Source of the DNA: a virus
Strand: one strand, 5' to 3'
IMG/VR virus record: IMGVR_UViG_3300046534_001281
Location: 7,814-71,813 of that record
Length of the DNA: 64,000 nucleotides
Part shown: piece by piece, positions 31,582 through 44,143 of the stretch
Layout of the letters: the number at the start of each line of letters is the position of its first letter
Numbering within the stretch: the first letter of the stretch is position 1
Program-made: the position numbers and the translations under genes
The notes under the pieces: generated by a model
Databases searched by the model: none
Seen by the model: only the letters and a program-made list of their open reading frames with translations
Told to the model about the DNA's origin: nothing

Positions 31582-31620
31582 CTTGACTCAAGCAGTAAAG
31601 TGTGTTTAAGTAACCCTGTT

Positions 31621-41033: not shown

Positions 41034-41317
41034 AGATATGGTTAAAGATATTAAAAAAATAGGAGGGGTAATTTCTCTCAAAGAATTAGTAGCCCCTAAT
41101 TATTTTCAAATAGAGGGCGAGGAAGATAAATTATACGTTGTATATCATGATGACAAAACCAACCATCATAAAATCGATGAGTTGGATTTAGACACCTATA
41201 TTAAGAAATCTCTTTTCAGAATTAACTTCAACCCCTCGGAAAAAGTTCAATTAGTTGAAGTTACTTTTGAAGTATAAACGTTGACAAACACAAACCCTCT
41301 GTTAATCTAAAGAAGTT

Positions 41318-41521
41318 ATGAGCCTCGAATATACTATACAAGATCGCAAATCGGAACTCAAAGGTCAGTGGAAAGCTGAATACAATAGAACCAACGATGA
41401 TTTCTATCCCGATAACGAAGACTCTAAAGTTTTATTCGAGATGAATGTCCGATTGGCTGAAGAACTCGACAGACTTAAAGAAGAACTTTCCGAATTAAAA
41501 TCGAAATTAGTCCTTGACTAA
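41318..41521 (+). CDS. small coiled-coil early protein
   Basis: TTGACA..TAATCT..GTT-ATG. Confidence 0.6.
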   Translation: MSLEYTIQDRKSELKGQWKAEYNRTNDDFYPDNEDSKVLFEMNVRLAEELDRLKEELSELKSKLVLD

Positions 41522-41551
41522 TCCAACCAAATATATTAAAGTAAAAACACA

Positions 41552-42301
41552 ATGAATCCAAAACTACACGAACTCCTAGCCGTTGAAGGCAAACTCGAAG
41601 GTCAATCCAAAAAAGTCGTTGGCGACTTGACTCAGACCTTTCATAAGAAGCGACATCACTTTGAAGAAAAGACAGTCGTATTCACGCCGAACGCAGAAGG
41701 TGAGCGAACAGTCACCGAAGCACAGTCGGACATTCAAACCACTGTTGATAAGGAACTTAAGTGGGTTACTGATCACCTCACCAATTCCCTTGATGCTTCG
41801 TATCAAGTGGCTGAGACCAACACACAAGCAAGAGCAGATATCATCTTGACTGATGGAACAATCGTTGCTAAAAACGTCCCCGCTACAGCACTCCTTGAGC
41901 TTGAGAAGCGTGTTTCTGAAATCGCTGATCTCCTTAAGAACATCCCAACTCTTGATCCTGCTAAAGGATTCAGTCCAGACACTGCCCGTGGTGATGGTTA
42001 CTTCCAAGCAAGGGAAGTAACTAAAGGACGAACCAAAAAGGTTAACAAGCCAATTGTTCTTTATGATGCAACCGAAAACCATCCTGCACAGACTCAGATC
42101 GTGACAGAAGATGTTGAAGTCGGTAAGATTCAAGAGCAAGAATGGTCAAGCCTGTTCACTCCTGCTAAGAAGTCAGCCTTGATCAACAAAGCCGAGGTTT
42201 TGGAGCGAGCAGTTCGCCAAGCACGTTCAAGAGCCAACGAGCAACCAGTAGATCAAACCAAGACAATCGCCAAGCAAATCTTGAGCGCAATCTTTGACTA
42301 A
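41552..42301 (+). CDS. conserved helical protein of unknown function, directly upstream of a tRNA-like ncRNA
   Basis: KLHELLAVE, NTQARADI, VPATALLELEK, IPTLDP, LYDATENHPAQ, AR.RAN; codon usage like highly expressed genes. Confidence 0.8.
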   Translation: MNPKLHELLAVEGKLEGQSKKVVGDLTQTFHKKRHHFEEKTVVFTPNAEGERTVTEAQSDIQTTVDKELKWVTDHLTNSLDASYQVAETNTQARADIILTDGTIVAKNVPATALLELEKRVSEIADLLKNIPTLDPAKGFSPDTARGDGYFQAREVTKGRTKKVNKPIVLYDATENHPAQTQIVTEDVEVGKIQEQEWSSLFTPAKKSALINKAEVLERAVRQARSRANEQPVDQTKTIAKQILSAIFD

Positions 42302-42306
42302 ACAAA

Positions 42307-42596
42307 TTTCGGGCGGAAGTGGTGGTCACTCGTAAAAATAAGCCACCACTTCTTAAACCTAAGCTAAAGGTAATATTCAAGTTTAAACTCAATTTAAAGT
42401 TATTACCCGAAGGCTAAACCCAGAGAACATGAAAAGCAAATGAAATAATCGATAAAACACCTGTGTGCGTTGATTCGAATTCAACCACGGACTCCAGCTA
42501 AATAATACAAGTCCGTGTAGCTCAGTGGTAGAGCAGCAGTTTCAAGTTTACATATTGGTTCGATTTCCTTGCGAAGTTCATCCATGTTCAACATAA
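42307..42596 (+). ncRNA. circularly permuted tRNA-like (YrlA/Y-RNA-like) structured RNA
   Basis: T arm 42469-42485, acceptor 3' strand+TCCA 42486-42496, acceptor 5' strand 42511-42517, D arm 42520-42534, long closing stem 42425-42464/42536-42589. Confidence 0.8.
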
Positions 42597-42632
42597 GAAA
42601 GGTCGCAATAGGATATGTGCGGCCTTTCGTTT
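42597..42632 (+). terminator. intrinsic terminator
   Basis: GAAAGGTCGCA...TGCGGCCTTTC-GTTT. Confidence 0.7.
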
Positions 42633-42691
42633 GCCCTGATACCAAAATAAACCTTGACTTCAGGCTAAAAATAGATTAAAGTCTCCTTGTT

Positions 42692-42916
42692 ATGAAAAAC
42701 CTACCGAAACGAGTCACCACAGTCACCAAAAAGCTTAAAACCTCCAACCCGTGGGGGTTAGGTGATCGAATTTCAGAAGCTTTTGAAGCCAACTGGGATA
42801 CCGCCGAAAGAGACATTTCCAAACTGTATAAAGAACAGTGGGTTATTGATTTTTGTGAAAAAGTGAATCTGTCGCCTCGTTTCTTTATCAAAAATCTGGT
42901 TGGAATCGCCCTATAA
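42692..42916 (+). CDS. small early hypothetical protein
   Basis: TTGACT-N17-TAAAGT-N6-GTT-ATG. Confidence 0.6.
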   Translation: MKNLPKRVTTVTKKLKTSNPWGLGDRISEAFEANWDTAERDISKLYKEQWVIDFCEKVNLSPRFFIKNLVGIAL

Positions 42917-43477: not shown

Positions 43478-44143
43478 ATGAAAACAAAAGCAATCCACGC
43501 ATTAGTCGCATCAACAACTCTCATCATGGGGTTGGTTGTATATACAGAAACCACAACCCCAACGGTTAAAGATGTTCCAATTTTGGTTAAGCCGAATATT
43601 AAACCTACCGATATCCCTATTTTGGTTAAACCCAATAGACTCCCTACCGATATCCCTATTTTGGTTAAACCTAATATTAAACATACCAAAATCGACTATC
43701 ATGAAGAAATGATTAAGGGTGTTAAATATTTCGAGGGCTTCCGCTCAAAACCTTACTTTTGCAGCGGAAAAGTGAAAACTATTGGCTATGGCTGCACCGA
43801 TCCTGCAATTACTCGAAAGGGTTATATTTCAGAAAAGGGGGCGGATAAACTTCTACGAAAAACACTCCATAAAATTAGGGTTAGGGTTTTGAAGAGTGTC
43901 GATGTTGATTTGACTGAATGGCAGCTCGCTGCGCTTACCAGCTTCGCCTTCAATGCAGGGATGGGTAGTCTGGAAACATTAATTGGCCAAAAGGATCGCC
44001 TAAATGACGGGAATTATGGTAGCGTTGTTATTGTCATGCCTCTTTATCGAAACGCAGGTGGAAAAATTCGGAAAGGATTGGTCCTCCGTAGAGCTTGGGA
44101 AGTCGAACTTTATGAGGGAAAAATCATTACCGAAAGATCTTGA
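43478..44143 (+). CDS. GH24 lysozyme with N-terminal membrane anchor and 12-aa repeat linker
   Basis: FEGFRSKPYFCSGKVKTIGYG, ALTSFAFNAG, GLVLRR.WE; D[VI]PILVKPN x3. Confidence 0.9.
   Translation: MKTKAIHALVASTTLIMGLVVYTETTTPTVKDVPILVKPNIKPTDIPILVKPNRLPTDIPILVKPNIKHTKIDYHEEMIKGVKYFEGFRSKPYFCSGKVKTIGYGCTDPAITRKGYISEKGADKLLRKTLHKIRVRVLKSVDVDLTEWQLAALTSFAFNAGMGSLETLIGQKDRLNDGNYGSVVIVMPLYRNAGGKIRKGLVLRRAWEVELYEGKIITERS

Follow-up and report, generated by a model that had tools for sequence, protein, structure and literature searches.

A DUF7873 gene in large phages is followed by a Y-RNA-like molecule with a tandem hexamer array, suggesting an undescribed protein–RNA particle

The locus described here lies within a 64-kb window (64,000 nt, the whole stretch of DNA that was analysed) of the 71.8-kb IMG/VR virus record IMGVR_UViG_3300046534_001281, the completeness of which is 32% (CheckV). 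A gene on the + strand (41552–42301, stop codon TAA at 42299–42301) encodes a protein of 249 amino acids that matches the Pfam family DUF7873 (PF25283; E = 3.8e-63, 213.9 bits versus a cut-off of 27) over its full length, with residues 3–248 aligned to profile positions 2–242 of 244. The 339-nt spacer that follows (42302–42640) folds with a z-score of −5.0, none of 100 shuffled sequences being as good, and is best explained as encoding a stable noncoding RNA of about 290–330 nt that belongs with the gene. This RNA, which is conserved and structured, joins a 5′ domain of tandem hexamers to a transfer RNA (tRNA)-like domain of permuted topology, and it is linked exclusively to DUF7873. In the following, the labels L### and G### designate related loci and related records, respectively; G001 is the closest IMG/VR relative (100% complete, with terminal repeats).

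Upstream of the gene, a promoter-like site of the form CTTGACT-N16-TTAAAGT is located on the + strand at 41513–41542 (scan at 41514–41542; 9/12 positions match), and the next copy after the RNA is at 42653, before the following gene. With up to two mismatches, this pattern has nine copies on the + strand of the window, versus 0.87 expected. A terminator-like hairpin (42597–42630, + strand, single-sequence fold) stands ahead of the copy at 42653. The stop codon, the TTCGGG/CCCGAA pair, the hairpin, the hexamers, an ATG-less open frame and the permuted tRNA-like domain that an initial annotation of this DNA had pointed out were all recovered where it had placed them. Its proposal that one promoter and one terminator bracket the gene and the RNA stands for the promoter-like site, which is a recurrent motif, whereas the hairpin at about 42597–42630 folds but was not called by a simple terminator scan.

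The tRNA-like domain (42461–42539, on the + strand like all features of the window RNA below) is the sole match in the window of the covariance model R1 (82.6 bits) and is supported by covariation. Its anticodon-type stem of 4 bp (42461–42464 with 42536–42539; covariation) encloses, in this order, a variable loop of 4 nt (42465–42468), the T arm GTTGA-TTCGAAT-TCAAC (42469–42485; covariation), the acceptor 3′ strand CACGGAC (42486–42492) with an encoded TCCA (42493–42496), a linker of 14 nt (42497–42510), the acceptor 5′ strand GTCCGTG (42511–42517), followed by TA, and the D arm GCTC-AGTGGTA-GAGC (42520–42534). The domain is carried on a long imperfect stem, for which single-sequence folding pairs roughly 42425–42460 with 42556–42592; the 5′ strand (42425–42460) appears in both the minimum free energy and the centroid folds, and the Rfam YrlA alignment pairs AAUCGA with UCGAUU. 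Directly 3′ of the domain, the fold places a hexamer-like bulge, UUUCAAGUUU, followed by the 3′ strand of the long stem (together 42540–42592). The motif GAU-YAR-RCU, 3′ of the 4-bp stem, is conserved in 36 aligned loci, so placed that one or two extra copies of the hexamer motif bulge beside the tRNA-like domain. The long-stem 3′ strands of L003, L012, L017, L019, L025, L028 and L046 carry a conserved bulge, GAACAGAGCUAAAAAG, 3′ of the domain, to which UUGCGAAGUUCAUCC is aligned in the window.

The domain does not qualify as a tRNA. The 5-bp stem and 7-nt loop of an anticodon arm were not found, only four pairs being conserved; at column pair 249/345 of the alignment, A-G or C-U combinations lead into an internal loop. 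The idea of a genuine anticodon loop of 7 nt bearing a leucine anticodon was rejected on the same four conserved pairs and the asymmetry of the internal loop. ARAGORN detected no tRNA and no transfer-messenger RNA (tmRNA) in the 64-kb window, and Rfam gave no match in it at gathering thresholds.

The 5′ domain (42306–42425) is likewise the sole match in the window of its own covariance model, R2 (54.2 bits, E = 9.6e-11). It is closed by the helix P1, the 5′ strand of which, TTCGGG (42308–42313), begins 7 nt past the stop codon and pairs with CCCGAA (42406–42411), after which comes a conserved linker, AAGGCUAAACC. P1 is supported by covariation: six of its eight pairs show changes on both sides, and 86.8% of the cells are paired. 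Within P1 lies the capped hairpin P1a (42316–42352) with a 10-bp stem formed by GAAGTGGTGG (42316–42325) and CCACCACTTC (42343–42352). A stretch of 64 kb is, by our own estimate, long enough for perfect 10-bp hairpins not to be rare, but 22/22 aligned relatives have a capped hairpin (at least 4 bp) at this place, with differing sequences and with loops mostly of the GNRA or UUCG type. The possibility that a GGUGA element pairs with the P1 3′ strand as a switch was discarded, GGUGA not being conserved (L007 and L020 have CAGACUCA).

From 42352 to 42399 the loop closed by P1 presents eight tandem YUNARR hexamers, with U at position 2 in seven of the eight and A at position 4 in all eight; across loci the number ranges from five to ten. 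The enrichment of this motif was counted in 34 main-clade loci, the distant L041, L042, L043 and L045 and duplicates being left out. The pattern YTNAR[AGC] occurs 169 times, compared with 76 ± 8 in 200 dinucleotide shuffles, and a spacing of exactly 6 nt is observed in 41 cases, compared with 1.1 ± 1.05 in the shuffles (largest 5). An alignment of 22 5′ domains contains invariant T and A columns, two bases apart, with a 6-nt period, and the hexamer core is therefore U-N-A. In L041 and L042 (37–38% protein identity) the tract reads UUCAUA/CUCAUA, i.e. YUCAUR, with AU-UAU / AU-AAU in the loop adjoining the tRNA-like domain; motif and loop are both NAG/NAA in the main clade and both NAU in these two. 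The tract hexamer and this loop seem to change together, as judged from two loci only.

Comparison of the relatives supports these helices of the RNA by covariation. For 24 full-length RNAs, RNAalifold predicted P1, the 4-bp stem, the T arm, the acceptor stem and the D arm, with 23 of 24 pairs kept through changes on both sides. When scored as a 28-pair structure on 24 sequences, 95.7% of the cells pair and 25 of the 28 pairs show changes on both sides. The covariation score of 0.729 was not reached in any of 500 shuffles (0.214 ± 0.017), and controls in which the structure was slid along the alignment gave at most 0.154; of these two controls, only the slide control corrects for relatedness. 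In the acceptor stem, pairing is 100% and 7/7 pairs are changed on both sides.

The linkage between gene and RNA was examined with a pattern consisting of a T arm, a 7-nt strand, a linker and the complementary 7-nt strand, sought up to 900 nt downstream of the DUF7873 stop codon. Exactly one permuted tRNA-like domain was found there in 43/45 sequences, and after removal of five near-identical loci in 38/40. One of the two misses, L010, does have the permuted domain with a degenerate T loop; in the other, L013, the pattern search gave none, and a weak 5′-domain match lies 600 nt downstream. The expectation that homologous genes would share the downstream RNA features was thus borne out, by the permuted domain in 38 of the 40 distinct loci and by the enrichment of hexamers in the 34 main-clade loci. 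When all open reading frames (ORFs) of at least 60 amino acids within ±4 kb were clustered for 41 loci, DUF7873 was the sole cluster common to all 41, and the next cluster, antisense shadow ORFs aside, was present in 6/41. Because DUF7873 alone is common to these loci and the RNA lies downstream of it, gene and RNA form a self-contained two-part module in otherwise unrelated neighbourhoods. In most loci the RNA starts 2–12 nt past the DUF7873 stop codon, and in L046 P1 overlaps it; in some loci 80–400 nt or a tRNA lies between the ORF and the RNA. Many loci have tRNA genes before or after the unit; the window has no tRNA gene.

Among sequenced phages, Rhizobium phage RHph_Y65, Ralstonia phage phiRSL1 and Gordonia phage Keelan have the DUF7873 gene followed by an unannotated gap of about 300–480 nt, among tRNA genes. 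The permuted domain has CCCA at the RHph_Y65 locus and ACCA in Keelan, and phiRSL1 (L052, 5880–6215) contains two tandem permuted domains with closed acceptor hairpins. Tandem domains of this kind, with closed hairpins and no main-clade hexamer tract, are seen in the distant L052 and L043/L045 (4840–5100). Close downstream of the module in L035 and L040 (5580–5652) lies an ARAGORN-called tRNA whose UUA anticodon would decode the UAA stop.

Permuted tRNA-like RNAs also occur away from DUF7873. G001 has a second one (C1:42509–42603; L056 260–354, − strand; R1 53.9 bits, then CCCA) inside a tRNA cluster at 42.5 kb with no adjoining DUF7873 gene, and it lacks a hexamer domain both by eye and by R2. 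In the five whole phage records (134–238 kb), R2 has exactly one match each, adjoining DUF7873. This model also matches nine main-clade loci outside its seed; it gave no match in L016, L024, L029, L035 and the distant L041–L045 and L051–L053. Since other permuted tRNA-like RNAs, such as the G001 copy, are without it, the hexamer domain is, on these comparisons, the part specific to the DUF7873-linked RNA. Two more permuted RNAs (54.1 and 39 bits, N-CCA) lie upstream of the gene for a TROVE (Ro60-type) protein in RHph_Y65 (138550–139550; L054 1–1000), a region with about seven copies of GTTGCGA, which may mark several Y-RNA units.

The protein belongs to a large family. Among 1970 candidates, 1341 homologues were found at E ≤ 0.001; a profile scan gave 43 viral loci on contigs of 15–424 kb and one contig of a metagenome-assembled genome, and by tblastn the family is present, always at less than 60% identity, in 75 sequenced phages from ten host genera, with Vibrio, Rhizobium, Gordonia, Klebsiella, Serratia, Arthrobacter, Ralstonia and cyanobacteria among the hosts. 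The AlphaFold2 model, with a predicted local distance difference test score (pLDDT) of 91.8, consists of four long helices and a long β hairpin, a fold without a known match. Foldseek against the PDB and BFVD gave no match at E ≤ 0.001, and the profile searched against PDB sequences had a best E of 0.18. The wide VIA-align search gave a best Z of 9.2 to a designed helical protein, in a range common for helical models, and the ESM Atlas gave a best score of 0.80 among clusters without names. PHROGs has no family for the protein; NCBIfam gave only V-ATPase subunit E at 19.7 bits, far under its cut-off, and PADLOC an unusable 15.7 bits. The two-copy prediction yields a symmetric interface of about 250 contacts with a dimer score of 0.78, versus 0.00 for the best of three controls; at least 96% of the contacts agree between runs and the partner pLDDT is at least 90. 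A score of 0.78 was reached by 20/30 proteins solved as same-chain pairs and by 1/23 solved as single chains, a calibration that is only rough here as our own alignment served as input. DUF7873 is therefore predicted to self-associate as a symmetric, intertwined homodimer.

The order of elements in the RNA, namely stem, T arm, acceptor-like stem, D arm and stem, is that of the bacterial Y RNA YrlA (RF02553). The initial annotation was right about the permuted order of the tRNA-like domain and did not recognize this topology. Like YrlA, the RNA has canonical T and D loops and occurs in phages, and a 7-bp acceptor stem with CCA is shared with the YrlA of Mycobacterium smegmatis. It differs in its extra 120-nt 5′ domain of tandem hexamers and in its linkage to DUF7873 in place of rsr. 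A permissive Rfam search of 42200–42750 gave YrlA as the only match (42446–42569, 33 bits, E = 2.3e-5). At other loci, the YrlA model scores 32–37 bits on the DUF7873-adjacent RNA in five of seven and has no match in two, and L002 has none at E ≤ 1; the RNAs adjoining the TROVE gene of RHph_Y65 themselves reach just 34–37 bits. A T arm, an acceptor-like stem and a D arm on a flanking stem, as in YrlA, were found, with covariation in all four helices. The fold is that of YrlA, but of the four YrlA traits open to testing three were not found, and we therefore file the RNA as YrlA-like rather than YrlA.

This layout bears on how the RNA may be processed. U at −1 and CCA favour bacterial RNase P. 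In 36 aligned domains (five duplicates were dropped, as were L043 and L045 with their differing D loops), N-CCA comes directly after the acceptor 3′ strand in 30, C74 is present in all 36, the acceptor 5′ strand starts with G (G+1) in 31 and U precedes it at −1 in 24; the discriminator base is C in 20, U in 11 and G in 5. According to excerpts of Chen et al. (2014; PMC4201824), RNase P cleaves M. smegmatis YrlA, another RNA with a 7-bp acceptor stem, both in vitro and in vivo; CCA is acquired in vivo, and the two halves remain with Ro60. In that RNA CCA is added after RNase P cleavage, whereas in the window it is encoded. Because the layout matches that of the RNase P-cut M. smegmatis YrlA, we infer that cleavage of the window RNA would fall between 42510 and 42511 and that trimming would leave a CCA 3′ end at 42496. 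A metatranscriptome contig (169 nt, depth 3.5) is identical to 42324–42492, so that its final base coincides with that of the acceptor 3′ strand, which fits a separate 5′ piece; the library is contig-based, so that it cannot prove an RNA end or transcription, and DNA may be present in it. The contigs cover only 42324–42492, leaving the ORF, the first 22 nt of the RNA and all sequence 3′ of 42492 uncovered, and have no bearing on absence, ends or levels, and the 'seawater' label of the metatranscriptome rests on an 11% word share.

Taken together, the reading that we favour, with somewhat better than even confidence, is that the DUF7873 transcript gives rise to a stable RNA, which RNase P opens in its acceptor loop and which DUF7873 dimers hold through the U-N-A array. 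The promoter motif at 41513, the hairpin at 42597–42630 and the next promoter at 42653 would delimit the transcript from which the two-domain RNA is released; by opening the acceptor loop, RNase P would probably split the molecule in two. The hexamer array is likely to be a platform on which the predicted DUF7873 dimers dock. Protein and RNA may make up a ribonucleoprotein that does not depend on Ro60 and that offers a decoy tRNA to those enzymes of host or phage which handle tRNA or RNA. That the hexamers serve as binding sites for an oligomer of the upstream protein had been put forward in the initial annotation; the proposal is strengthened by the sole conserved pairing of gene and RNA in 41 loci, by the once-per-genome occurrence of the domain and by the predicted self-association, the case for binding itself being comparative. 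A parallel is offered by TRAP, the trp RNA-binding attenuation protein, which binds GAG/UAG repeats: in both systems short conserved single-stranded cores (U-N-A / NAG) are regularly spaced and adjoin the gene of a self-associating protein. DUF7873, however, has no detectable likeness to TRAP and is predicted to be a symmetric dimer, not an 11-mer ring, and the period is 6 here, not 5–6 with variable spacers.

Several observations weigh against this reading. Structure and profile searches detected no recognizable RNA-binding fold in DUF7873, and the protein is not basic overall (isoelectric point 6.1; 10.2 for the last 50 residues). The support for the long stem comes from single-sequence folding, and a duplex test gave a median z of −1.85 with z < −2 in 15/34 loci, using crude upstream boundaries that were wrong for several loci (in the window z = −0.3, with 98 nt wrongly taken as the upstream strand). 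In 6/36 relatives CCA is absent and the acceptor stem is extended into a closed hairpin, and a free CCA end is therefore not essential in all of them. The YrlA match in the window spans the full model (1–114) but is far under the gathering score (33 versus 69 bits), and GNCGAAN0-1G, a motif near the 5′ end proposed to contact Ro60, does not occur in the window and was seen in only 2/38 loci, up to 100 nt upstream of the T arm. TROVE genes lie within about 6 kb of DUF7873 in five of six distinct TROVE records; with a Ro60 gene this close and on the same strand, the actual partner of the RNA in those phages could be Ro60. The tight linkage of gene and RNA, finally, would also suit a purely cis role for the upstream mRNA or for a tRNA operon.

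Y RNAs are defined by their partner Ro60. The first alternative, which we regard as unlikely, is that the RNA is an ordinary Y RNA (YrlA) bound by Ro60/Rsr, the partner being a phage Ro60 beyond the fragment or that of the host, with DUF7873 unrelated or accessory. The YrlA topology and the sub-threshold Rfam matches are in its favour. No TROVE match was found in the 71.8-kb record of the window; with the record only 32% complete, a Ro60 gene may lie outside. The criterion used in PMC4201824 for YrlA genes is a position on the same strand as, and within about 4 kb of, a Ro60/TROVE gene. TROVE was found in 7/46 related records (2/5 and 5/41), always on the same strand as DUF7873 and mostly within about 6 kb of it. 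By distances calculated from contig ranges, G019 has it immediately upstream of DUF7873 and G017 some 1.5 kb downstream, and it is 4–6 kb away in G003, G037 and RHph_Y65 and about 18 kb away in G002/G006. A phage Ro60 accompanied by phage Y RNAs is moreover documented, as far as excerpts of PMC4201824 and PMC12135203 go.

Against a Ro60-bound YrlA, TROVE was found in only two of the 17 related records that are at least 90% complete and is absent from the other 15, the complete G001 included. The scarcity of GNCGAAN0-1G, missing in the window and present in two of the 38 loci, points the same way; a looser NGCGAA upstream of the T arm occurs in 7/38. RHph_Y65 and G003 have separate permuted RNAs by their TROVE genes (about 0.9 kb upstream in G003), apart from the DUF7873-linked one, and the hexamer domain with its exclusive linkage to DUF7873 would be left unexplained. 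A related phage system is that of Thermus phage phiLo, in which Ro60 occurs with the RNAs Yrl1 and Yrl2; there too, in the excerpted account (PMC12135203), phage-encoded Y-RNA-like molecules are proposed to engage host RNA enzymes. The phiLo system is, however, built on a Ro60 homologue, whereas none is in view here and the candidate protein is another one. A phage Ro60/Y RNA has also been suggested for a Listeria phage (excerpts of PMC12282133), and TROVE has been described in a subset of jumbo phages (Iyer et al., excerpts of PMC7824862).

The second alternative is a cis-acting or processing element without a dedicated protein, either an mRNA-stabilizing 3′ end or an RNase P/RNase E entry site heading a tRNA operon. 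The start of the RNA 2–12 nt past the stop codon in most loci, the overlap of P1 with it in L046, the tRNA genes flanking the unit in many loci and the position of the promoter motifs, one before the gene and the next after the RNA, would all suit such an element. However, the window has no tRNA gene at all, yet the full RNA is kept, and a hairpin that only stabilizes would need far less than these roughly 300 nt, which include an invariant hexamer core as well as a complete tRNA-like core. The intervals of 80–400 nt, or a tRNA, between ORF and RNA in some loci argue against strict coupling to translation termination. We consider such an element improbable.

The last alternative, a two-piece tmRNA-like molecule with the hexamer tract as its resume reading frame, had been raised in the initial annotation and is extremely improbable. 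An ATG-less frame ending in ..LKPKLKVIFKFKLNLKLLPEG* is indeed present at the tract, because the CUN-ARR hexamers read (Leu-Arg/Lys)n, and this frame is open between the first and the last motif in 17/34 loci. Two-piece tmRNA genes likewise place the T arm, the acceptor 3′ strand and an encoded CCA upstream of the acceptor 5′ strand, and have a long stem instead of the anticodon arm. In the other 17 of the 34 loci, however, a stop interrupts the frame; all hexamers share one codon phase in just 4/34, and the end points of the frame vary. TAG, CAG, AAG and GAG alternate at one hexamer position among loci, and the YUCAUR hexamers of L041 and L042 would turn Leu-Arg/Lys into Phe/Leu-Ile/Met. The G3:U70 alanine identity pair is found in 0/36 acceptor stems and the discriminator base varies. 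ARAGORN called no tmRNA in the window or in 44 loci, and Rfam none at the gathering threshold, the sole tmRNA-family row being a partial beta_tmRNA match of 24.9 bits to the phiRSL1 T arm. The window RNA further differs from two-piece tmRNAs in having a full D arm and in that no conserved tag frame or pseudoknots were detected in it. To our knowledge, the tag tract of two-piece tmRNAs does not lie in the piece with the 3′ acceptor strand, which is where the hexamer tract lies here. By these comparisons, the conserved spacer encodes a structured RNA rather than a reading frame.

A more far-reaching form of the DUF7873-bound RNA model, which we offer as speculative and rather improbable, is that DUF7873 dimers reading the U-N-A hexamers make up a Ro60-independent, Y-RNA-like particle whose CCA-ended, RNase P-split tRNA body acts as a multivalent tRNA decoy. 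Such a particle might sequester the host's anticodon-directed nucleases, or it might recruit tRNA-processing enzymes to serve the phage's own tRNA set. Each hexamer has the Y-U-N-N-N-R pattern of an anticodon loop.

The co-occurrence of this gene and this RNA in many large phages suggests, by comparison of sequences, a protein–RNA particle that has not been described. A literature search, which did not extend to supplementary tables, gave no mention of DUF7873 or PF25283, and within the same scope the literature on tRNA-like RNAs and Y RNA in jumbo phages and on permuted tRNA in phages contained nothing on the DUF7873 module. Here the permuted tRNA-like module of Y RNAs is joined to another, strictly co-inherited protein and, in its new 5′ half, to an unprecedented hexamer array, and neither the window record nor most of its complete relatives contain a Ro60 gene. 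If the two do form a ribonucleoprotein, the large DUF7873 family of unassigned function would gain a role, a tRNA-mimic scaffold would have been reused with different proteins, and several cultivable phage–host pairs would become available for studying tRNA mimicry in infection, the contest over cleavage of host tRNAs being one example.

Some further features of the region are recorded here. A blastn search of 41300–42900 against a phage collection gave no match. The terminal hairpin is unique in the window (one match at up to three mismatches, 0.38 expected), by which it was ruled out as a general terminator motif of the window; hairpins that appear similar by eye close the unit in relatives. 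The GC-rich end hairpins of L003, L004, L008, L012, L016, L017, L019, L025, L028 and L036 have a common apical motif, CGCGUG(N)UAGCG / CGAGGUAGCG, the counterpart of which in the window, GCAAUAGGAUAUGUGC (42605–42620), is likewise unique there. The + strand copies of CTTGACT-N16-TTAAAGT are located at 31582, 39670, 41513, 42653, 43164, 43439, 44139, 44504 and 56340, and between 41.5 and 44.5 kb the pattern precedes nearly every small gene. One ORF in this interval (43478–44143, +) encodes a phage lysozyme/endolysin (PF00959, E = 1.1e-26; phrog_7) with an N-terminal stretch containing three copies of a PILVKPN-type repeat.

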